A stretch of DNA of 64,000 bases from an uncultured candidate division Zixibacteria bacterium (lineage in GTDB: Bacteria > Zixibacteria > MSB-5A5 > RBG-16-43-9). Both the position numbers and the translations under genes were made by a program. The notes below the pieces were generated by a model. That model made no database searches and was not told the DNA's origin. It saw nothing but the letters and a program-made list of their open reading frames with translations. The stretch lies in assembly GCA_963713865.1 (NCBI GenBank), contig OY970208.1:1440001-1504000 (forward strand), in the 5' to 3' direction. Shown here piece by piece: positions 3,245 through 60,379 of this stretch. Every line of letters begins with the position of its first letter. Within the stretch, counting starts at the first letter, position 1.

Positions 3245-4459
3245 ATGAAAAGAAGCTCGAAAGTTTTCCGGGGAGTAATTCTGGGATTAGCCAGTATACT
3301 TTTTTTCTCCTGTGCGAAAAAGGAGGATGTGGTGGTTTTAGGAGAATTTGGTTCCCTGACCGGGGTTACTGCTACCTTTGGTAAATCAACCCAAAAAGGG
3401 ATTCAGATGGCTATAGATGAATTAAATAAAGGGGGAGGAATAGAAGGGAAATTGATTAAAATCGTAGTCGAGGATGATCAATCCAAGCCAGAAGAAGCAG
3501 CAACGGTTGTCAAGAAGCTGGTTAATCAGGATAAAGTGCTTATAGTTTTAGGTGAGGTGGCTTCTTCCAGAAGCTTGGCTGGTGCTCCCATCTGTCAGGA
3601 GGGCAAAGTGCCGATGATCACTCCTTCCTCCACCAATCCCAAGGTAACCCAGGTGGGCGATTATATTTTCAGAGTTTGTTTTATAGATCCTTTTCAAGGT
3701 GAGGTGATGGCTAAGTTTGCCCGGAATACTCTCAAGGTTAGCAAAGCGGCAATATTAAAAGATATTAAAAATGATTACAGTGTTGGGCTGGCTCACTTTT
3801 TCACCGAGACCTTCAAGGCTTTGGGTGGAACAGTTATGGCGGAGGAATCTTATTCTGAAGGAGATATTGAGTTCAGGGCTCAATTGACTTCCCTCAAGGC
3901 TAAAAGTCCTGAGGTTATCTTCATCCCCGGTTATTACACTGAGGTGGGCTTGATTGCCCGCCAGGCAAGGGATTTAGGGATTAACGTTCCCCTGATCGGA
4001 GGGGATGGCTGGGATTCCCCACGCCTGATAGAAATAGGGGGAAAAGCCTTAGAGAATACTTTTTACAGTAACCATTACACTCCAGAGGATCCCAGACCAG
4101 AAATTCAGAATTTTATCTCAGAGTATAAAACAAAATATAATGAGATACCGGATGCAATGGCACCTTTAGGTTATGATGCGACCCGAATAGCCTTTGATGC
4201 TATAAAAAGATCAGGAATTTTGGAGGAGAAGAATATTAAAGAGTCTTATTCTGAGAATCCAAAAGCTAAATCTTTAATGGACGCAGTTAACACCGAGCGA
4301 AATCGGGAACGGATTAGAGATGCTATAGCCCGGACCAGGGATTTCCCGGGAGTAACGGGAGTTATCACCATCGACCAGAATCGTAATGCCAAGAAATCGG
4401 CAGTGGTCCTTAAATACGAAGATGGAAAATATAAATATGTGGAGACGATAAATCCGTAA
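3245..4459 (+). CDS. livJ: Branched-chain amino acid ABC transporter substrate-binding lipoprotein
   Basis: Lipobox FFSC; periplasmic binding protein type 1 motifs (GEVASS, TPSSTN, YIFRVCFID, GGDGW); heads the livHMGF cluster. Confidence 0.9.
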   Translation: MKRSSKVFRGVILGLASILFFSCAKKEDVVVLGEFGSLTGVTATFGKSTQKGIQMAIDELNKGGGIEGKLIKIVVEDDQSKPEEAATVVKKLVNQDKVLIVLGEVASSRSLAGAPICQEGKVPMITPSSTNPKVTQVGDYIFRVCFIDPFQGEVMAKFARNTLKVSKAAILKDIKNDYSVGLAHFFTETFKALGGTVMAEESYSEGDIEFRAQLTSLKAKSPEVIFIPGYYTEVGLIARQARDLGINVPLIGGDGWDSPRLIEIGGKALENTFYSNHYTPEDPRPEIQNFISEYKTKYNEIPDAMAPLGYDATRIAFDAIKRSGILEEKNIKESYSENPKAKSLMDAVNTERNRERIRDAIARTRDFPGVTGVITIDQNRNAKKSAVVLKYEDGKYKYVETINP

Positions 4460-4463
4460 AGAG

Positions 4464-4507
4464 AATGACGGATTCCGAATGACGAATGACTGATAACGGA
4501 TTTCGAA
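4464..4507 (+). repeat. 7-bp-period tandem array, left arm of four-helix-bundle cassette
   Basis: TGACGGA TTCCGAA TGACGAA TGACTGA TAACGGA TTTCGAA at 4466-4507. Confidence 0.85.
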
Positions 4508-4535
4508 TAAAAGAATAATAACCATTGTTAAAAAA

Positions 4536-4907
4536 ATGGCTGTTTATAGAAATTTTGAGGACTTACCAATCAGGAAAGAAGCGAAAGATTTAGCAGTACG
4601 AATATATAAAATAACCAAAGACGATAAACTTAAAAGAGATTTTGGTTTGTCTGAACAGATAAGGAGAACAGCTCTTTCTAAATCAGGCAATATTGCTGAA
4701 GGATTTGATCGAAGTTCGAGGAAAGAATTTATAAAGTATTTATATATAGCCAAAGGCTCTGTCTCAGAGGTGAGAAGCCAACTATTCATCTGTAAAGAAT
4801 TGGGTTATTTAGATAATGGTATCTCAGAAGAACTCTTAGGAAGGACAACATCCCTGACCAGGCAGATTAGCGCTCTCATATCTTTTTTAAAGAAAAGAAA
4901 CCTTTAG
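4536..4907 (+). CDS. Four helix bundle protein (23S rRNA IVP / Avd-like family)
   Basis: FEDL...L.EQIRR.A.S...NIAEGF.R.S.KEF..YL.IAKGS..E..SQL pattern; 123 aa; sits between livJ and livH. Confidence 0.9.
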   Translation: MAVYRNFEDLPIRKEAKDLAVRIYKITKDDKLKRDFGLSEQIRRTALSKSGNIAEGFDRSSRKEFIKYLYIAKGSVSEVRSQLFICKELGYLDNGISEELLGRTTSLTRQISALISFLKKRNL

Positions 4908-4959
4908 AATGAACCAGTCGTTCTCTATATTATTTATCTTGTCAAATCTTCTATTTTTA

Positions 4960-4989
4960 TTAATCATCCGTTATCCGATATCCGTCATT
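4960..4989 (-). repeat. 7-bp-period tandem array, right arm (inverted relative to 4464-4507)
   Basis: TCCGTTA TCCGATA TCCGTCA at 4967-4987; ATCCGTCATT (4980-4989) is the exact reverse complement of AATGACGGAT (4464-4473). Confidence 0.85.
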
Positions 4990-5002
4990 TTAGTTTATAA
5001 TT

Positions 5003-5905
5003 ATGTCTGAATTTCTACAACAGTTGATTAACGGGGTTGCCTGGGGCTCAATTTATGCTTTAATAGCTCTGGGTTATACTATGGTCTACGGGGTCTTAAG
5101 GCTGATAAATTTTGCGCACGGGGATATTTATATGGTGGGGGCTTTTGCTGGATATTATGTGGTTAGGTGGCTAAAGGTATCTGAAGGGCTTACCCTTACA
5201 GGTGTGGTGGGGGTGTTTTTGTTCTCTATGTTAGCCTGTTCTCTTTTAGGATTTGTGATCGAAAGATGTGCCTATAAACCTTTGAGAAAGGCTCCCCGTT
5301 TAACTGCTCTGATCACCGCTATCGGTGTATCTTTGTTTTTAGAGAATGCCGGCCAGCTTATCTTTGGCGCTGACCCGAAGTTCTTTCCACAAATTATAGT
5401 TAAAAAAGACCTTATCTCCAGCGGGGGAGTAATCTTAACTAATCAACAGGTGATCGTCCTGGGAGTATCTTTATTTTTAATGGCATCGCTCCAGCTTTTT
5501 ATTCAGAAGACAAAAACCGGCAAGGCTATGCGAGCGGTCTCTTTTAACCGGGAAGCAGCCTCTTTAATGGGGATCTCCATTGACAGAATTATCTCGATAA
5601 CTTTTGTGGTTGGCTCGGCTTTAGCTGCAGCCGCTGGAATACTGGTAGCCTTGACCAATCCAAAGATAGAGCCATTGATGGGGATAATGCCAGGGATAAA
5701 GGCTTTCGTTGCCGCAGTTTTAGGTGGCATAGGTAATATCCCTGGGGCAATGTTAGGCGGGATGATAATGGGCATCGCTGAGGTAATGGTGGTTGGTTAT
5801 TTATCTTCTACTTACAGAGATGCTATCGCCTTCGCTATTCTCATCTTGATATTATTGTTCAAGCCCTCTGGCTTGATGGGTGGATTTAGGGGGGAGAAAG
5901 TATAG
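5003..5905 (+). CDS. livH: Branched-chain amino acid ABC transporter permease
   Basis: QQLINGVAWGSIYALIALGYTMVYG..INFAHG; KAFVAAVLGGIG. Confidence 0.95.
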   Translation: MSEFLQQLINGVAWGSIYALIALGYTMVYGVLRLINFAHGDIYMVGAFAGYYVVRWLKVSEGLTLTGVVGVFLFSMLACSLLGFVIERCAYKPLRKAPRLTALITAIGVSLFLENAGQLIFGADPKFFPQIIVKKDLISSGGVILTNQQVIVLGVSLFLMASLQLFIQKTKTGKAMRAVSFNREAASLMGISIDRIISITFVVGSALAAAAGILVALTNPKIEPLMGIMPGIKAFVAAVLGGIGNIPGAMLGGMIMGIAEVMVVGYLSSTYRDAIAFAILILILLFKPSGLMGGFRGEKV

Positions 5906-5991
5906 ACCGCCAAAATGAAAAAAGGAAAATGAAAGAAGGAAGATGGGAAAAGAAAAATAGAAAAAGAAATGACGAATATCGAATATAATAT

Positions 5992-6100
5992 GTAGGGGCG
6001 GGGTTACCCCGCCCCAATCCACCAGATGCAGAGGGCGAGGAGACCTCGCCTCTACAGAAATACTGTCATTGCGGGTCCCCGTAGGGGGCGAAGCAATTCC
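5992..6100. repeat. GTAG REP pair plus half of a GTCATTGCG...CGAAGCAAT palindromic element
   Basis: GTAGGGGCGGGGTTACCCCGCCCC (5992-6015) and inverted AGGGCGAGGAGACCTCGCCTCTAC (6032-6055); TGTCATTGCG...CGAAGCAAT follows. Confidence 0.8.
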
Positions 6101-6113
6101 ACTAATAATGAAA

Positions 6114-6177
6114 TGACGAATGAAAGATATCAAATAGCCAATAGCGAAGAACGAACAGTGAATAGCTAAAAAGCGAA
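6114..6177 (+). repeat. Orphan 7-bp-period array (about 9 units)
   Basis: TGACGAA TGAAAGA TATCAAA TAGCCAA TAGCGAA GAACGAA CAGTGAA TAGCTAA AAGCGAA. Confidence 0.75.
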
Positions 6178-6180
6178 CTT

Positions 6181-7179
6181 ATGCAACCTAAAAAAATCAT
6201 CTTCATAATTCTGGTGTTGGGGCTTCTCCTTCTGGTGAATTATTATCTCCCCTCACGAATGAATCCTTATCTTTTTCAGATATTGATCCTCATAGGTATA
6301 AATATCATGCTGGCGGTAAGCCTGAATTTGATAAATGGTTTTACCGGACAATTCTCCATCGGACATGCTGGTTTTATGGCTATTGGTGGATATACTTCAG
6401 CTTTTCTGACCTACTATTTTGGAGCAAATTTGATCCAGAGTTTAAGCTCAATTCTTTTTTTCCCCTGGCTGGCAAAATCGATAATCTTTGTTTTCGCCTT
6501 AATCGCAGGAGGACTTTTGGCCGCCCTGGCAGGTTTGGTTGTAGGGATTCCTTCATTAAGATTAAAAGGAGATTATTTAGCTATAGCTACCTTAGGTTTT
6601 GGGGAGATCATCCGGGTTTTAATCCTGAATATAGATGCAGTTGGTGGTGCCAGAGGGTTTGCGGATATTCCGGGGTACACAAATCTTTTCTGGGTTTTAT
6701 TTTTTATGCTTCTTACTATCATAGTAGTTAGAAATCTGGTCTTTTCCACTCATGGACGGGCATTCCTTTCAGTTAGAGAAGATGAAGTGGCAGCTGAGGC
6801 TATGGGGATTAATACTACTTATTATAAAATATATGCTTTTATAATCGGTGCGTTTTTTGCCGGGATTGCTGGCGGTCTTTTCGGGCATTATCTGATGTAT
6901 CTGCATACTAACAGCTTCACCTTTATGAAATCGATAGAGGTGATTATAATGGTGGTTTTAGGCGGGATGGGCAGTATTACCGGCTCAATACTGGCAGCAA
7001 TTATTATGACCATACTACCTGAATTCTTAAGAATCGTCAAAGACTATCGGATGGTGATTTATTCCCTTACATTAATAATTCTAATGTTGACGCGACCACA
7101 GGGTATATTTGGAGTGGAAGAGTTCAGCCTAAAAATGTTGAGAAATGTGTTTGTTAGAAAAGGACAGGTGGTAAAATAA
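6181..7179 (+). CDS. livM: Branched-chain amino acid ABC transporter permease
   Basis: LNLINGFTGQFSIGHAGF, LRLKGDYLAIATLGFGEI and VREDEVAAEAMG motifs. Confidence 0.95.
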   Translation: MQPKKIIFIILVLGLLLLVNYYLPSRMNPYLFQILILIGINIMLAVSLNLINGFTGQFSIGHAGFMAIGGYTSAFLTYYFGANLIQSLSSILFFPWLAKSIIFVFALIAGGLLAALAGLVVGIPSLRLKGDYLAIATLGFGEIIRVLILNIDAVGGARGFADIPGYTNLFWVLFFMLLTIIVVRNLVFSTHGRAFLSVREDEVAAEAMGINTTYYKIYAFIIGAFFAGIAGGLFGHYLMYLHTNSFTFMKSIEVIIMVVLGGMGSITGSILAAIIMTILPEFLRIVKDYRMVIYSLTLIILMLTRPQGIFGVEEFSLKMLRNVFVRKGQVVK

Positions 7180-7180
7180 A

Positions 7181-7470
7181 GTAAGACGTTAGACGTAAGA
7201 TGTGAGAAGATTATTATAACATCCCGCTTCTGGCGGGACGAAAGAAAGTCTTCGCGGGTAAGGACACCAACGAAGAGCAAAGATTATTTTTTCGTAGTGC
7301 GACCCTTTTCCTAATTACGGATCCGTAGGACAGGGTCGCCAGGAGGAAGATAGAATGTAGGGCAAGGCTTTAGCCTTGCTAAAATAACTTTTGTGAGGAT
7401 ACCAGTGAAGAGCTGAAAAACAATATAAGCAAACCTGAAGGTCCAGAATGGATCTTGAAATTTGTCCTAC
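7181..7470. repeat. Mosaic spacer: heptamer array, TCC/GGA mini-palindromes and GTAG REPs
   Basis: GTAAGAC-type array 7181-7208; TCCCGCTTCTGGCGGGA 7222-7238; GTAGTGCGACCCT...AGGGTCGC 7294-7339; GTAGGGCAAGGCTTTAGCCTTGC from about 7357 with inverted partner ending CCTAC at 7470. Confidence 0.75.
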
Positions 7471-8312: not shown

Positions 8313-8452
8313 GTAAGACGTGAGACGTGAGATGTAAAACGAAAATAAAAAATCGTAAGGCTCCGACTTTGACGGAGCGAAAAAATGTAGCGTCGGGCTT
8401 TATACCCGACGAGAATTTATAGTCGTGTAGTGGTAGAGCTTATCTCCATCCT
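8313..8452. repeat. Mosaic spacer: heptamer array and REPs
   Basis: GTAAGAC GTGAGAC GTGAGAT GTAAAAC at 8313-8340; GTAGCGTCGGGCTTTATACCCGACG at 8387-8411; AGTCGTGTAGTGGTAGAGCTTATCTCCATCC resembles 1209-1239. Confidence 0.75.
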
Positions 8453-9197: not shown

Positions 9198-9456
9198 AAA
9201 AAGGCTCAAAGGTTTAAAGGTTCAAAAGCTTAAGGGTAAAAAAAGAAAAGGTAAGACGTGAGACGTAAGAAGTGAGATGACTGTATCGTCCCGCCTTCGG
9301 TGAGACGAAGGAATGTTTCCGAGCTTGATGAATCGAATCCCCTACACAAGCAACCCTGAAAGGGTCGCACTACCTTTTTATTCAACATTCGACATCTGGG
9401 GGACGAGTATAAACGAGATCATCAAGCAGTTGAAAAAATAAAAGTGATATAGAAAC

Positions 9457-9547: not shown

Positions 9548-10093
9548 ATGAAAAGTGAATATCTTAAAAAATACAAGCATGCACCTGCTCACCTCTTTTT
9601 GGATACCTATCCCTATTTCATCACTTCAGGAATATATTTAAAGAAATATTATTTCGAAAACGATCAAGAGAAAAAAATATTGTTTGAGATAATAACGGAG
9701 ATATTACAGAAAAATGCAGTGGAACTTTTAGCTTGGGTGATATTATCAAATCATTATCATCTTCTTATAAATTTAAAAGAACCTGTTTACTTGCCAGAAA
9801 TCATAAGGAAAATACATAGTAAGAGCTCAGTAATAATAAATAGAGAAGAGAAAATAACAGATAGAAGGATCTGGCATAACTACTGGGATAGATGTATCAG
9901 AGATGAAAAAGATTATTACTCCAAATTAAATTATATCCATTATAATCCGGTTTAACATAATTATGCGAAAGACCCTTCACAATATGACTTTTCAAGTTAT
10001 AAAGTTTACTTGGAGGAATTAGGAAGCAAGCGATTGACAAAACTTGTAACTGATTATCCTGTAGAAGAACTTGGTTTTAAAGATGATTATTAG
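9548..10093 (+). pseudogene. REP-associated tyrosine transposase (RAYT, Y1/HUH) with in-frame stop at 9953-9955
   Basis: YFIT, AWVILSNHYHLL (HUH), YWDRCIRDE, YIHYNPV-TAA-HNYAKDPSQYDFSSY. The frame continues to TAG 10091-10093 (181 codons); TAA replaces the usual Lys of NPVKH. Confidence 0.85.
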
Positions 10094-19139: not shown

Positions 19140-21399
19140 CTATCTCAACAAAATCATCTTTCTGGTATCAGAGTAATCCCTGGTTTTCAACTGATAGAAA
19201 TATATTCCGCTTGCCACTTCTTTACCTGAATTGTCTTTCCCATCCCAGAATACCTGATAATATCCAAGCAGCCTTTCATCATCCACCAATGTTCTCACCA
19301 ACTGCCCCCGAATATTATAAATCTTCAATGTGGTATGGATGGGGCTATGAACTATGAGCTGTGAGCCATAAACCGTGAAGGGTATGGTGGTGTTGGGATT
19401 AAAAGGATTAGGATAGTTCTGGAAAAGCTCAAAAGAGTTAGGGATATTGTTCTGAACTGGTTCATCCGGCACGGAGGTGGGCACACCAAGATATGCTACC
19501 CCTCCAGAAGTAGCAAACCACTTGTTTCCTGAGCCATCTATGGCTATAGCATATACAAAATCATCAGGCAGTCCGCTGTTTATGGTGTTATAAGTAGTCC
19601 AGTTAGTCCCATCAAATTTACTCACCCCACTACCAAAAGACCCTAACCACTTATTATCTGAACCATCCACAATAACTGAATAAACATCATTAGAAGCCAA
19701 GCCACTGTTAGAGGTGTTATAAGTAGTCCAGTTGGTCCCATCAAATTTGCTTACACCATTCAAGGTCCCGAACCACTTATTATCTGAACCATCTACGACC
19801 ATAGACTGAACATACTTAGAAGCCAAGCCACTGTTAGAGGTGGTATAGGTAGTCCAGTTTGTCCCATCAAATTTGCTTACACCATTCCAGGTCCCGAACC
19901 AGATGTTTCCTGAACTATCTATGGCTATAGACCAAACATCATCGTAAACCAGAACCGCTATTGGATTCGTTGTATGTAGTCCAGTTTATCCCGTCAAACT
20001 TACTTACACCATCAGCAGTTCCGAACCATTTATTCACTGAGTCATCAATAACTATAGATCTTACCCAGTTTCTTACCAAACCGCTATTGGATTCGTTGAA
20101 AGTAGTCCAATTGATACCATCAAACTTACTTACCCCACTACCCCAAGTTCCGAACCATTTGTTCCCGGAATCATCTACTGCTATAGAGAAAACATCATTG
20201 GCAGCCAATCCGCTGTTAGAGGTGTTAAAAGTTTCCCAGTTTGTCCCATCGAACTTACTTACCCCGGATTCCCGGGTTCCGAACCACTTATTTCCTAAAC
20301 CATCTATGCTCATAGACCTGACAAAATTATCCACCAGACCATTGTAGCAATTATTATAAGTTGTCCAGTTGGTCCCATCGAATCTGCTCACCCCACTACC
20401 AAAAGTCCCGAACCATTTATTACCAGAAGTATCTGAAGTTATAAACCAGATAGAATCATTGGCTAAACCACTGTTGGAGGTGTTATAAGTAGTCCAATTG
20501 GTCCCGTCGAATTTGCTCACGCCAGAAAACCAGGTGCCAAACCACTTATTGTCCCATTTATCTATGGCCATAGAAAAAATCTCATTAGAAACCAGACCAC
20601 TGTTACCTGTATTATAGTTAGTCCAATTGGTTCCATCAAATTTGCTTATTCCAAAATCAAAAGTACCAACCCATTTGTTATCTGAACTGTCTATGGCAAT
20701 ATAAGTAACTGCATTTGAAATCAGTCCGCTATTTGACCGGTTATAGTTGGTCCAGTTGGTTCCATCAAATTTATCCACACCATAAGCGGCAAACCAGATA
20801 TTCCCATATCTATCTACGGCCATGGAAAAAACCCAGTCAGAAGAGAGCCCGCTGTTAGAGGTATCATAGGTAGTCCAGTTTGTCCCATCAAATTTGCTTA
20901 ATCCGCTTCCATAAGTCCCGAACCATTTGTTCCCTGAACTGTCTATAGCTATCGAAATAATATGATTATTAACCAGGCCGCTGTTAGAGGTGTTATAAGT
21001 AGTCCAGTTGGTCCCATCGAACTTGCTCACTCCACCAGCCGTAGTCCCGAACCACTTGTTACCTGAACCATCTACGGCTACAAAAAAGACAAAGTTAAAA
21101 GCCAAACCGCTGTTAGCATTGGTATAGTAAACAACGTCCGTTAAGGGATTGGTAATGCTCCTTTTTACCACACCTCCTGTGGTCCCCTGCCATAGATAAT
21201 CTCCTTCTATTGCTAAGCCATAAACAAGTCTGTCATTGGTGTAGCTTTTCCAGACCTCCTGGGCTCGGGCAATGTTTGTTAGAAAAAGGATTATAAGAAG
21301 GAGAAATGTGAATTTGAATAAAGACGGGAGGGGACAAGCCCCTCCCCTACAAAAAATCCTCTTTATATGCGATGGTATGATAATATTTAAGTTTCTCAT
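19140..21399 (-). pseudogene. Secreted beta-propeller (Reg_prop/PorZ-like repeat) protein with FlgD/T9SS-type CTD; +1 frameshift at about 19953
   Basis: ORFs 19939-21441 and 19140-19826 join into 752 aa if one base of AGCGGTTCTGG is removed (NSG-LVYDDVWSIAID...); span 2260 = 3n+1; paralog of 21742-23997. Could be a sequencing error. Confidence 0.8.
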
Positions 21400-21741: not shown

Positions 21742-23997
21742 CTATCTCAACAAAATCATCTTTCTGGTATCAGAATAATCCCTGGTTTTTAATTGATAGA
21801 AATATATTCCGCTTGCCACTTCTTTGCCTGAGTTATCTTTCCCATCCCAGAATACTTGATAATATCCAGGCAGCCTTTCATCATCCACCAATGTTCTCAC
21901 CAACTGCCCCCGAATATTATAAATCTTCAAGGAGGTGTGGATGGGACTATGAACTATGAGCTGTGAGCCATAAACCGTGAAGGTTATGGTGGTTGTTGGA
22001 TTAAAAGGATTAGGATAGTTCTGGAAAAGCTCAAAAACAAGCGGGATATTTGGCTGTTCTTCTTCAGGCACGGAGGTAGGTGAACCAAGATAACCCACCC
22101 CATCTCCAGTGGCAAACCACTTGTTCCCTGAACCGTCTAAAACTATGGCGTCTATATAATCTCCTGGTAAGCCACTATTCCAGGTGTTATAAGTGGTCCA
22201 GTTAATTCCATCAAACTTACTCACTCCACTGCCAAAAGTCCCAAACCACTTATTACCTGAACCATCTATAGCCATACAGCTAATCTCGTTAGAAACCAGT
22301 CCACTGTTTGAAGTGGTATAATTTGTCCAGTTAGTATCATCAAACACGCTTACTCCACCATCAGTGCCGAACCACTTGTTATTTGAATAATCGACTATTA
22401 CGTAATAAACATCATCGTTAGCTAAACCACTATTTGTGGTATTATAAGTTGTCCAGTTTATCCCATCAAACTTGCTAACACCATCCCAGGTTGCAAACCA
22501 TTTATTATTTGAACTGTCTATGGCGATAGACCAAACCGCATCATAAATTAGCCCGCTATTGGAGTCATTATAAGTAGTCCAGTTTATTTCATCATACTTA
22601 CTTACACCACCCCAAGTCCCAAACCATTTGTTCCCCGAACCATCAACTACTATACTGGTGATAAAATCGTCAGCTAATCCACTATTGGATTCGTTGAAAG
22701 TAGTCCAATTGATACCATCAAACTTACTTACCCCACTACCCCAAGTTCCGAACCATTTGTTCCCGGAATCATCTACTGCTATAGAGAAAACATCATTGGC
22801 AGCCAATCCGCTGTTAGAGGTGTTAAAAGTTTCCCAGTTTGTCCCATCGAACTTACTTACCCCGGATTCCCGGGTTCCGAACCACTTATTTCCTAAACCA
22901 TCTATGCTCATAGACCTGACAAAATTATCCACCAGACCATTGTAGCAATTATTATAAGTTGTCCAGTTGGTCCCATCGAATCTGCTCACCCCACTACCAA
23001 AAGTCCCGAACCATTTATTACCAGAAGTATCTGAAGTTATAAACCAGATAGAATCATTGGCTAAACCACTGTTGGAGGTGTTATAAGTAGTCCAATTGGT
23101 CCCGTCGAATTTGCTCACGCCAGAAAACCAGGTGCCAAACCACTTATTGTCCCATTTATCTATGGCCATAGAAAAAATCTCATTAGAAACCAGACCACTG
23201 TTACCTGTATTATAGTTAGTCCAATTGGTTCCATCAAATTTGCTTATTCCAAAATCAAAAGTACCAACCCATTTGTTATCTGAACTGTCTATGGCAATAT
23301 AAGTAACTGCATTTGAAATCAGTCCGCTATTTGACCGGTTATAGTTGGTCCAGTTGGTTCCATCAAATTTATCCACACCATAAGCGGCAAACCAGATATT
23401 CCCATATCTATCTACGGCCATGGAAAAAACCCAGTCAGAAGAGAGCCCGCTGTTAGAGGTATCATAGGTAGTCCAGTTTGTCCCATCAAATTTGCTTAAT
23501 CCGCTTCCATAAGTCCCGAACCATTTGTTCCCTGAACTGTCTATAGCTATCGAAATAATATGATTATTAACCAGGCCGCTGTTAGAGGTGTTATAAGTAG
23601 TCCAGTTGGTCCCATCGAACTTGCTCACTCCACCAGCCGTAGTCCCGAACCACTTGTTACCTGAACCATCTACGGCTACAAAAAAGACAAAGTTAAAAGC
23701 CAAACCGCTGTTAGCATTGGTATAGTAAACAACGTCCGTTAAGGGATTGGTAATGCTCCTTTTTACCACACCTCCTGTGGTCCCCTGCCATAGATAATCT
23801 CCTTCTATTGCTAAGCCATAAACAAGTCTGTCATTGGTGTAGCTTTTCCAGACCTCCTGGGCCCGGGCAACGTCTGTTAGAAAAAGGACTATAAGAAGGA
23901 GAAATGTGAATTTGAATAAAGACGGGAGGGGGCAAGCCCCTCCCCTACAAAAAATCCTCTTTATATGCGATGGTATGATAATATTTAAGTTTCTCAT
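21742..23997 (-). CDS. Secreted beta-propeller repeat protein with FlgD/T9SS-type C-terminal domain
   Basis: About 13 repeats of about 44 aa (D.SGNKWFGT..GVSKFDGTNWTTYN..NSGL); LFQNYPNPFNP...WDGKD..G.EVASGIYFYQL...KMILLR; start ATG 23997 after GAGGAG. Confidence 0.88.
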   Translation of the reverse strand: MRNLNIIIPSHIKRIFCRGGACPLPSLFKFTFLLLIVLFLTDVARAQEVWKSYTNDRLVYGLAIEGDYLWQGTTGGVVKRSITNPLTDVVYYTNANSGLAFNFVFFVAVDGSGNKWFGTTAGGVSKFDGTNWTTYNTSNSGLVNNHIISIAIDSSGNKWFGTYGSGLSKFDGTNWTTYDTSNSGLSSDWVFSMAVDRYGNIWFAAYGVDKFDGTNWTNYNRSNSGLISNAVTYIAIDSSDNKWVGTFDFGISKFDGTNWTNYNTGNSGLVSNEIFSMAIDKWDNKWFGTWFSGVSKFDGTNWTTYNTSNSGLANDSIWFITSDTSGNKWFGTFGSGVSRFDGTNWTTYNNCYNGLVDNFVRSMSIDGLGNKWFGTRESGVSKFDGTNWETFNTSNSGLAANDVFSIAVDDSGNKWFGTWGSGVSKFDGINWTTFNESNSGLADDFITSIVVDGSGNKWFGTWGGVSKYDEINWTTYNDSNSGLIYDAVWSIAIDSSNNKWFATWDGVSKFDGINWTTYNTTNSGLANDDVYYVIVDYSNNKWFGTDGGVSVFDDTNWTNYTTSNSGLVSNEISCMAIDGSGNKWFGTFGSGVSKFDGINWTTYNTWNSGLPGDYIDAIVLDGSGNKWFATGDGVGYLGSPTSVPEEEQPNIPLVFELFQNYPNPFNPTTTITFTVYGSQLIVHSPIHTSLKIYNIRGQLVRTLVDDERLPGYYQVFWDGKDNSGKEVASGIYFYQLKTRDYSDTRKMILLR

Positions 23998-32538: not shown

Positions 32539-33288
32539 ATGAAATTTGGACTTGGCAGGTTCATTAAATACTTACTTTCCAAACCAAAAAATCAAGCAAT
32601 GGTGGGTTTGGAATTAAGGTTAGGGTATAAGTTTAAAAATAAAGATCTTTTGATTGAATCTCTGACTCATCGCTCCTCCTTAAAAGAACAAGGCAAGCAG
32701 AGGGGGGCTTCTTATGAAAGACTTGAATTTTTAGGTGATGCGGTCTTAGGATTATCAGTCAGTCGTTTTTTATTTGAGAATTTTCCTGATCAAGATGAAG
32801 GGGAACTAACCAAACTCAAAGCTACCTTAGTGAGTGAAGCTAATCTTGCTCGAAAAGCCAAGCTTATCTCTTTAGGGAAACATCTCTTTTTAAGTCCGGA
32901 GGAGGAAAAATCTGGTGGCAGGTTAAGAACTTCTATCCTTTCTGATTCCTATGAAGCACTTTTAGGTGCAATTTTCTTAGATGGTGGACTGGAAGCAGCT
33001 GTACAGTTTATTCAAATGCAAATCTTGAGAAACTTAAAAGAGACGACGCTGGATAGGTCTTTTCAGAATTATAAGGGTGAACTTTTAGAATATCTTCAAG
33101 CTGAAGGGGAGGGTATTCCAAAATATGAAGTCCTGGAGGAAAGTGGGCCGGATCATCAAAAAATGTTTACCATCGGGGTATATTCAAAAGGAAGACGTCT
33201 GGGAACAGGGAAGGGAGCAAGTAAAAAAGAAGCAGAACAGAATGCAGCCAAGATGGCATTAGAGGAGTTCGAAAAAAATTTAAATTAA
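32539..33288 (+). CDS. rnc: Ribonuclease III
   Basis: ERLEFLGDAVL signature plus C-terminal dsRBD (GPDH...G.G.SKKEAEQ.AA). Confidence 0.97.
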   Translation: MKFGLGRFIKYLLSKPKNQAMVGLELRLGYKFKNKDLLIESLTHRSSLKEQGKQRGASYERLEFLGDAVLGLSVSRFLFENFPDQDEGELTKLKATLVSEANLARKAKLISLGKHLFLSPEEEKSGGRLRTSILSDSYEALLGAIFLDGGLEAAVQFIQMQILRNLKETTLDRSFQNYKGELLEYLQAEGEGIPKYEVLEESGPDHQKMFTIGVYSKGRRLGTGKGASKKEAEQNAAKMALEEFEKNLN

Positions 33289-59754: not shown

Positions 59755-60222
59755 ATGAAGAAAAATAAAGTATTGATCGTTATGGGAAGTGATTCGGATA
59801 GGGAGGTGATGAACAAGACTGCAGAAGCTCTAACTGATTTTGGGATCGGGTTTGAAATGGTCATTTCCTCTGCTCATCGTAATCCGGAAAAGACCAGGAA
59901 ATTAGCAAAAGAGGCGGAGAGAAAAGGGTTTAAAGTGATCATCGCTGGTGCCGGAATGGCGGCTCATCTGCCGGGAGTTATGGCGGCTTATTCAAAACTT
60001 CCGGTTATCGGCATACCTCTACTTTCAGCTCCTTTTAAAGGTCTGGATTCGTTTTTTTCTATCCTGCAAATGCCTTCAGGTGTTCCAGTTGCTACTATGT
60101 CCGTAGGAATCCCTGGGGCGAAAAATGCGGCGATTTTTGCAGCGGAAATTTTGGCGTTGTCGGATGAAAAATTAAAGAAGAGGCTTAAAGGTTTAAAGGT
60201 TCAAAAGTTCAAGGGAAAATGA
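59755..60222 (+). CDS. purE: N5-CAIR mutase
   Basis: MGSDSD, SAHR, AGMAAHLPG, QMPSGVPVAT. Confidence 0.96.
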   Translation: MKKNKVLIVMGSDSDREVMNKTAEALTDFGIGFEMVISSAHRNPEKTRKLAKEAERKGFKVIIAGAGMAAHLPGVMAAYSKLPVIGIPLLSAPFKGLDSFFSILQMPSGVPVATMSVGIPGAKNAAIFAAEILALSDEKLKKRLKGLKVQKFKGK

Positions 60223-60224
60223 AT

Positions 60225-60250
60225 GTAGGGACAGAACATTGTTCTGTCCT
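60225..60250. repeat. GTAG REP, ACAGAACA-T-TGTTCTGT family (also 59703-59727 and 63413-63435)
   Basis: GTAGGGACAGAACATTGTTCTGTCCT; three copies in the window. Confidence 0.8.
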
Positions 60251-60379
60251 TATGAATTTTATATAGGTATAATTAATAGGATGCTTTATGGACTGAGTAG
60301 AAGCATACAGTAATCAGGGGTGGGGTTGTGCCCTGTATGCTGTCTACTACCTACTGTCTACTAACCTAAAGGAGGTAAA

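Follow-up and report, generated by a model that had tools for sequence, protein, structure and literature searches.

Architecture of the livJ–livH junction

A 526-nt cassette occupies the gap between livJ and livH in a branched-chain amino-acid transport (liv) operon of an uncultured Zixibacteria bacterium. The stretch analysed, here called the window, comprises 64,000 nt (positions 1,440,001–1,504,000 of contig OY970208.1), and coordinates refer to it unless the genome is named. The genome, G000, is one contig of 2.72 Mb with 40% G+C; other genomes are designated G001, G002 and so on. The cassette (4464–4989) starts 5 nt past the livJ stop codon and ends 13 nt before the livH ATG, and its sole cargo-size open reading frame (ORF; 4536–4907, + strand) encodes a protein of 123 residues. 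Tandem, imperfect heptamers form an arm on either side of this ORF, in opposite orientations. The element is a PF05635 gene looped between inverted arrays of a 7-nt unit, and it is part of a genome-wide array system. The junction is composed as follows:

3245–4459, + strand: livJ-like gene for a periplasmic branched-chain amino-acid binding protein (PF13458, Peripla_BP_6, E = 1.3e-57)
4464–4511, + strand: upstream arm, six imperfect TGACGRA heptamers, richer in G than in C on the sense strand (direct reading, repeat search and Tandem Repeats Finder, TRF)
4536–4907, + strand: gene for the four-helix-bundle protein (PF05635/TIGR02436, Avd-like), 123 residues, co-oriented with the liv operon
4955–4989, + strand: downstream arm, inverse units at 4966–4989 plus a degenerate stretch (direct reading, repeat search and TRF)
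5003–5905, + strand: livH permease gene, the 3' neighbour (PF02653, BPD_transp_2, E = 8.5e-43)
6181–7179, + strand: second BPD_transp_2 permease gene (Pfam profile match)

An initial annotation of this DNA had described six heptamers on the left and their reverse complements on the right. The left series is confirmed at 4466–4507 (TGACGGA, TTCCGAA, TGACGAA, TGACTGA, TAACGGA and TTTCGAA); the right arm holds only about three inverse units at 4966–4989 (ATCCGTT, ATCCGAT and ATCCGTC). The two perfect 10-bp inverted repeats that it named are exact on direct reading: 4464–4473 (AATGACGGAT) is the reverse complement of 4980–4989, and 4492–4501 (GATAACGGAT) that of 4966–4975. A repeat search pairs 4464–4496 with 4957–4989 (33 nt, 79% complementary), and an alternative alignment pairs 4478–4512 with 4955–4989 (35 nt, 77% complementary). 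TRF reports period 7 in both arms, with 4.0 copies at 4463–4490 and 2.7 copies at 4966–4984. The two spacers reach a local inverted-repeat score of 31, as do 3 of 2000 shuffles and 1 of 400 random genome segments; an inverted repeat of 10 perfect pairs is by itself weak evidence, arising in 74 of 2000 shuffles. Direct reading, TRF and the shuffles thus bear out inverted heptamer arrays that bracket a gene between livJ and livH. In three of four metagenome runs, related strains have contigs with an extra ATCCGTC unit after 4979: arm length changes by whole units, and a one-unit indel separates strains.

The cassette encodes a conserved four-helix-bundle protein

The 123-residue protein matches PF05635 (E = 5e-30, 104.3 bits against a cut-off of 33.8) over positions 1–105 of the 106 of the domain, and TIGR02436 (E = 3e-30, 104.6 bits against a cut-off of 24). 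It has both the core motif Q..RR....S...N[IL]AEG and the usual family length of ~110–130 residues, and residues Q41, S48, N52, A54, E55 and G56 are invariant across 10 aligned relatives. The protein is basic, with 25 K+R against 16 D+E and a net charge of +9. An alignment profile matches two solved chains, 2gsc_A (E = 1e-24) and 2rld_A (E = 9.5e-15). PF05635 is its only Pfam match: at E ≤ 5, neither PF22296 (bAvd-like), which is matched by five of the ten aligned relatives, nor HEPN or any other remote Pfam family was found. Profile searches of the whole unit returned no recombinase or transposase domain, in agreement with the initial annotation of the cargo. A role in anti-phage defence was considered and rejected, with no PADLOC match for the protein and one weak match among 10 relatives. 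A prediction of a four-copy complex gave no answer (score 0.34, mark 0.42) and is not used as evidence either way.

Intact orthologs at the liv site have ratios of nonsynonymous to synonymous substitution (dN/dS) of 0.105 (G000–G001), 0.067 and 0.071, with dS reaching 1.8 between G000 and G007. The protein is therefore a family member under purifying selection at this site. An arginine in place of the usual tryptophan near the N-terminus had been read as a possible sign of decay. The substitution, W13R, is indeed confined to G000, as are I50K, S52G, A46T and G113S, all at otherwise conserved positions, and dN to the outgroup G007 is 0.121 for G000 and 0.094 for G001; decay is possible, with the frame intact and dN/dS at 0.07–0.10.

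Inverted period-7/8 arrays accompany PF05635 genes in many phyla

A six-frame hidden Markov model (HMM) search of G000 found only seven PF05635 genes and one ORF remnant. A period-7/8 array and its inverse surround all seven genes, and the seven repeat units, or flavours, all differ (GTAGACA, GATNACA, GYTCAAAG, GTGATTA, TGACGRA, GTTTAARA and TAGGTRA). The cassettes belong to mRNA and tRNA operons and share the orientation of the adjacent genes, with one flavour each; tRNA genes flank two of them. In G000, inverted array pairs spaced 300–1500 nt apart occur essentially only around PF05635 genes.

The association extends well beyond this genome. An order-level set of 36 loci, seven from G000 and 29 from 29 of the 30 relatives searched, has an arm score of at least 24 at 34 loci, compared with 23 of 400 random segments, and the best period is 7 or 8 at every locus. 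A wide sample of 80 loci from many phyla, 74 of them with sufficient flank, reaches the same score at 60 of 74 loci, compared with 37 of 600 mismatched upstream/downstream controls; the period is 7 or 8 in 54 of the 60 passing loci. Inverted period-7/8 arrays, which the initial annotation had suggested looking for in homolog flanks, are thus found around all seven paralogs and most loci of both larger sets. The gene-plus-repeat design is widespread yet little described: we found no literature that links PF05635 or intervening-sequence (IVS) proteins to heptamer arrays, a point on which the supplementary tables of PMC2700814 may bear.

The arms are also polar and of uniform size. On the sense strand, G outnumbers C in the upstream arm of 47 of 51 order-level cassettes and of 54 of 60 from the wide sample, and arrays have a median length of ~4 units (interquartile range 3.3–4.3). 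Both flanking genes are co-oriented with the cassette gene at 35 of 62 loci, a flank is opposed at two, and the remainder are not callable. Protein sequence signatures and arm units go together across cassettes. For pairs at different sites, protein identity correlates with shared arm 5-mers (Spearman 0.32, reached by none of 500 permutations; 49 of 61 cassettes), and the mean Jaccard index of arm 5-mers is 0.256 at protein identities of at least 65% and 0.02 below 40%. The anticipated co-variation of repeat flavour with protein clade is thereby seen, and it holds across different sites.

An old insertion at the livJ–livH site

All 10 assembled livJ–livH junctions of the order contain the cassette (G000 and nine relatives, in four genera and two families); this liv operon is missing from most other genomes of the order. 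In all 19 syntenic genomes from other orders of the class the gap is empty and measures 11–176 nt, with a simple hairpin followed by a T-run in three outgroup genomes. The ancestral state was therefore an empty gap, and the insertion is old: it entered a short livJ–livH spacer in the ancestor of several genera and was then inherited vertically with the operon. The TGACGRA flavour also flanks the orthologous gene in G001, G006, G007, G008, G012 and G024. Over the same divergence the spacers within the cassette have become unalignable, and the TGACGRA unit is kept while unit number varies. Four of the ten copies are broken (G006, G008, G009 and G024) and retain their arms.

A second gene, which we call B-type, stands at the same place in G004, G005 and G009, members of three genera, with GGAAAAR as its arm unit. 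It is 50–53% identical to the A-type (TGACGRA) gene in G004 and G005, and in G009 it has a frameshift. In trees built from the neighbouring 750 nt of livJ and 900 nt of livH, genomes group by genus and not by cassette type, so the type was exchanged or differentially lost at least twice.

The initial annotation had regarded the unit as a candidate mobile cassette. Its suggested search for empty livJ–livH sites succeeds in the other orders and fails within the order, where none of the 10 junctions is empty and four metagenome DNA runs yielded no contig that skips the cassette, whether as an empty allele or as a joint. No target-site duplication is evident by eye at the boundaries taaagag|AATGACGG ... 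CCGTCATT|ttagttt or in orthologs, though an insertion this old could have lost one. Recent mobility is not supported at this locus, and the gene is largely fixed here across the lineage, which the annotation itself had named as an outcome that would speak against it. At the liv site the element is a fixed, long-lived operon resident and no active transposon.

Other sites show more turnover. The congeneric genome G001 has 10 cassette copies, and G000 has an internally deleted remnant of one of them. An AGCTNGT cassette is present in G001, G002, G003 and G004; in G005 the two arms remain with the ORF deleted, and in G000, G006 and G007 GC-rich hairpins of the repetitive extragenic palindromic (REP) type stand in its place. 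This pattern is one of repeated loss. Alternating occupied and empty alleles among close relatives, the mark of a transposon, are thus seen away from the liv site, mostly as losses, and are not seen at it. A TGACGRA-type cassette also lies upstream of mutL in G015 and G016, genomes of two further families. Paralogs in G000 are 24–50% identical to the 123-residue protein, and none is a near-identical copy.

Within the window, ~60150–60320 (− strand) holds a GTAGACA-flavour remnant made up of part of a right arm and the 3' end of the gene only. It adjoins a period-8 GGTTCAAA array, and the orthologous site of G001 has a full cassette.

Solo arrays line the operon and the genome

Arrays without a cassette are far more numerous. 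At 80% self-match, G000 has 2 arrays of period 5, 11 of period 6, 74 of period 7, 45 of period 8, 13 of period 9, 4 of period 10, 2 of period 11 and 7 of period 12; a looser threshold gives 240 merged arrays in ~15 flavours, about 30 for every cassette. Arrays between co-oriented genes are oriented, 91 being G-rich on the sense strand and 21 on the antisense strand, and the sense arrays begin at a median of 12 nt past the upstream stop codon. Every junction of the liv operon carries one or more, including the following:

5912–5965, + strand: solo GGAAAAR array, sense strand, directly after the livH stop codon (TRF and ortholog comparison)
7179–7209, + strand: solo GTRAGAC array, 2 nt after the livM stop codon
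8301–8345, + strand: solo GTRAGAC array after the livG stop codon
9198–9279, + strand: solo GYTCAAAG (period 8) and GTRAGAC (period 7) arrays after the livF stop codon

The GGAAAAR array after livH keeps its place and flavour in seven genomes of three genera, among them G001, G004, G006, G007, G009 and G024. The whole livH–livM junction (5905–6181) contains this array, a few TGACGAA units, REP-type hairpins and a TAGCGAA array; the corresponding outgroup gap is only 4–60 nt. A GGAAAAR-type gene is not found in G000, although the array is conserved.

Solo arrays draw on the same words as cassette arms. At least eight 7-mers are shared with the arms of one of 51 sampled cassettes by 111 of 204 solo arrays, compared with 5 of 1000 random 35-mers and 36 of 612 flavour-permuted arrays. 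A threshold of at least three shared 7-mers proved invalid, being passed by 514 of 1000 random 35-mers, and was replaced by this one. The six-frame search of the genome found a single ORF remnant, so the solo arrays are not what recently dead cassettes left behind.

Arrays also surround stable RNA genes. The 23S rRNA gene of G000 lies outside the window (genome positions 1313064–1316113, a match of 3050 nt for a model of 2925 positions), with a GTAGACA array directly upstream (1312950–1312984) and a GYTCAAAG array directly downstream (1316164–1316203). Further arrays lie between tRNA genes near loci L004 and L006.

A period of 7 or 8 places the stop codon of a unit into all three reading frames. 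All three frames are closed by 81 of 157 sense arrays, compared with 61 ± 5.7 for arrays permuted within units and with 184 of 2000 (9%) other intergenic segments. With this modest excess, a stop-codon role of the arrays was set aside as mostly a by-product of composition and period.

Arm pairing and a proposed route of transcript processing

In the predicted RNA fold of 4455–5000 the arms pair in both the minimum free energy and the centroid structures (−125.6 kcal/mol, z = −2.72), which supports the proposal of the initial annotation that they pair in the mRNA. An RNase III gene lies in the window at 32638–33033 (+ strand; PF14622, E = 1.4e-36). Between 3000 and 9600, promoter-like sites number 13 against 14.2 expected from shuffles and terminator-like sites 8 against 6.5, a comparison that may not cover the promoter type of this lineage. 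The arms look like arrays of one conserved word in opposite orientations that are able to pair.

We propose that the cassette would have no promoter of its own and would ride on operon transcription. The arms would pair in the transcript and form a modelled stem of ~30–45 bp around the ORF. RNase III would cut this stem, as it does in 23S rRNA IVSs that carry the same gene family. The small protein would thereby gain a stem-capped mRNA of its own, and the livJ mRNA would be parted from the livHMGF mRNA. Argued by analogy, operon riding, stem formation and RNase III cutting may hold jointly, at slightly worse than even odds.

The arms may be more than a stem. Tentatively, and with a lower probability than the processing route, a nucleic-acid-binding factor would read the arrays one unit at a time; this factor could be the cassette's own basic protein. 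Unit-wise reading is suggested because the units are conserved and clade-specific, their polarity is fixed and their number is ~4–5; confidence in the cassette's own product as the reader is held down because arrays outlive their genes. Overall, we give a probability of about 60% to the reading of the element as an old, vertically inherited, IVS-type PF05635 cassette, with processing in the operon RNA and arms beyond a plain stem as its less certain parts. A wider extension, which we regard as unlikely, is that PF05635 proteins and period-7/8 arrays together make up a flavour-coded system, active throughout the genome, by which polycistronic transcripts are punctuated. G-rich arrays past stop codons and around rRNA and tRNA genes would then be read by ring-shaped Avd-like proteins or by a shared host factor, and each gene, packaged between its own code words, would be expressed, processed and inherited as a self-contained unit.

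Several observations weigh against the main interpretation. Arm mismatches are symmetric, with 77 G·U against 74 A·C in the 51 order-level cassettes and 64 against 59 in the 60 wide-sample cassettes. Selection for pairing of the sense RNA should favour G·U, and the arms therefore look like two conserved-word arrays rather than a compensated stem. A plain stem also leaves the polarity and the conserved unit sequence unexplained. Arrays without a cognate gene persist, which tells against reading by the cassette's own protein: GTRAGAC has 29–80 pattern matches in nine of nine genomes of the family, with the cassette protein in G001 only, and TGACGRA has 42–60 matches in G004, G009 and G026, which have no A-type gene (E ≤ 1e-25 or at least 55% identity). 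Because related cassettes are not independent, co-inheritance alone could explain the coupling of flavour and protein. Lastly, W13R, I50K and S52G at conserved positions suggest that the G000 copy may be losing function.

Alternative explanations

The distribution of solo arrays invites a different reading, in which the PF05635 paralogs serve the host as regulators or RNA-handling factors, each recognising its own 7/8-nt code in trans. The ~200 solo arrays past stop codons would be their targets, and a gene between its own sites would signify autoregulation. Such a system would account for the words shared by 111 of 204 solo arrays with cassette arms, for their orientation (91 against 21) and median start 12 nt past stop codons, and for the place and flavour kept across genera. 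There is precedent in Geobacter metallireducens, where the main text of PMC2700814 has paired hepta- and octanucleotide arrays annotated as global-regulator sites. We nevertheless hold it to be unlikely: abundant flavours persist in genomes without the cognate gene, and the four broken liv-site copies have not lost their arms.

The persistence of arrays without genes could instead mean that the arrays are an independent system resembling the short tandemly repeated repetitive (STRR) sequences, with the gene a passenger that persists or spreads only between array pairs, for example by same-flavour recombination. The arms would then do nothing for the gene, and the liv stem would be an ordinary operon-internal hairpin that sets the livJ:livHMGF ratio. 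Arrays outnumber cassettes about 30 to 1 and persist without the gene; several outgroup livJ–livH gaps have a simple hairpin followed by a T-run, and REP hairpins replace the cassette at another site. What this leaves unexplained is why genes of one family lie between such arms at 34 of 36 order-level loci and at 60 of 74 loci sampled across many phyla, why flavour follows protein clade and why purifying selection is strong. We rate it, too, as having a low probability.

An active, transposase-free mobile cassette, whose gene and arms are moved between intergenic sites by the small protein with or without the help of host enzymes, is less probable still. The arms would be element ends with several binding sites each, and the symmetric mismatches would fit such sites at the DNA level. 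Whole units are present or absent between close genomes (the AGCTNGT cassette in G000–G007), two types alternate at livJ–livH against the flank trees, the A-type recurs upstream of mutL in G015 and G016, and G001 has two GTAGACA cassettes at different sites; the idea of Ralph and McClelland that the IVS ORF serves mobility, as quoted in PMC4990558, is also in keeping. Against these stand the lack of near-identical copies among only seven genes and one remnant (24–50% identity), the lack of a visible target-site duplication and of a recombinase domain, and a liv site occupied since before the genera split. The best-resolved polymorphic site, moreover, shows repeated loss, not gain, and four metagenome runs gave no empty allele or joint.

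That the G000 copy is a decaying relic without present function, as its five private substitutions, its higher dN to G007, the broken orthologs in G006, G008, G009 and G024 and a right arm down to ~3 units might suggest, is improbable given an intact frame of 123 codons, a Pfam score of 104 bits far above the cut-off and a G000–G001 dN/dS of 0.105.

Relation to known systems

The closest counterparts of the proposed IVS-type cassette are the ORF-bearing 23S rRNA IVSs of Coxiella, Leptospira and others. As described in PMC4990558, the Coxiella IVS is a 428-nt element closed by a 28-bp terminal stem; its ORF belongs to the same family, and RNase III cleaves it in vitro at the RNA level. The 526-nt cassette shares with it the cargo family, a similar size and terminal inverted repeats (here arms of 33–35 nt) with a predicted long stem around the ORF; both have no recombinase of their own and are embedded in a highly transcribed polycistronic unit. 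Unlike the IVSs, which occupy helix 9, 25 or 45, the cassette lies between genes of an ABC-transporter operon, with other copies between tRNA genes, and no sampled cassette locus has 23S-like flanks. Its arms differ in being arrays of a 7-nt unit with clade-specific flavour, and RNase III cutting, known for the IVS, is for the cassette a conjecture.

Homology of PF05635 with Avd of diversity-generating retroelements (DGRs) is stated in PMC10053308. The two are sequence-related four-helix-bundle families of small basic proteins. Here, in contrast to DGR loci, the neighbours are liv genes, and neither a reverse transcriptase nor a template/variable repeat pair is adjacent.

Cyanobacterial STRR sequences are short tandemly repeated heptanucleotides. 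The G000 arrays are of this kind, consisting of tandem, imperfect 7-/8-nt units that are intergenic and occur in many copies and several flavours. Like them, the arrays of Geobacter metallireducens are intergenic, with 7-/8-nt tandem units at ~4–5 per array, and come in several flavours per genome, often as opposite-strand pairs at variable distance (PMC2700814). Four-helix-bundle or IVS-type genes between such pairs go unmentioned in the main text of that paper; its supplementary tables may list them. In the present genome, all seven PF05635 genes lie between paired arrays.

Hairpins of the REP or bacterial interspersed mosaic element (BIME) type inside operons, such as that between malE and malF, can set the ratio of binding protein to permease. 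The cassette likewise places a stable predicted stem just past the binding-protein gene of an ABC-transporter operon. It differs in that its stem encloses a conserved 372-nt gene and consists of periodic units, and true REP hairpins with a gene of the REP-associated tyrosine transposase (RAYT) family occur separately in the same operon. With miniature inverted-repeat transposable elements (MITEs) and other non-autonomous transposons it has in common a short length, inverted-repeat flanks, the absence of a transposase and an intergenic position. It is set apart from them by the lack of near-identical copies and of a visible target-site duplication, by a conserved non-transposase gene and by vertical inheritance.

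PF05635/TIGR02436 is a very large protein family whose function is known only for DGR Avd, and tandem heptanucleotide arrays have stood without an explanation for decades in several bacterial groups. At this locus the two are joined, and the comparative evidence, drawn from one lineage, is unusually clean: it comprises a dated insertion, a flavour kept at saturated divergence, unit-by-unit arm dynamics, strict polarity and a shared flavour repertoire. The simple mobile-element reading is corrected, since the liv-site cassette behaves as an operon resident of long standing. Should the arms serve in processing or recognition, they would offer a testable route to the function of both family and repeat, and compact parts for splitting operon mRNAs. 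If the flavour-coded system is real, it would account both for the orphan family of 'IVS proteins' and for the long-unexplained heptanucleotide repeats found in cyanobacteria, in Geobacter and in many further bacteria.

Other features of the window

GC-rich hairpins punctuate the liv intergenic regions at ~5990–6025, 7222–7245, 7355–7385, 8385–8415 and 9290–9310. They are of a tgtagNgc-stem-loop type, for example tgtaggggcggggttaccccgcccc. An ORF of the RAYT family, 135 residues long, lies just after livF at 9548–9955 (+ strand; NF047646, E = 4e-27), and the hairpins look like its REP elements. Similar hairpins stand in for a four-helix-bundle cassette at G000 positions 1914906–1914975.

Much longer tandem repeats, with units of 126–129 bp in up to 12.5 copies and 68–86% matches, extend over 19516–21116, 22556–22863 and 23447–23714. 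They are probably a repetitive protein-coding region on the minus strand.

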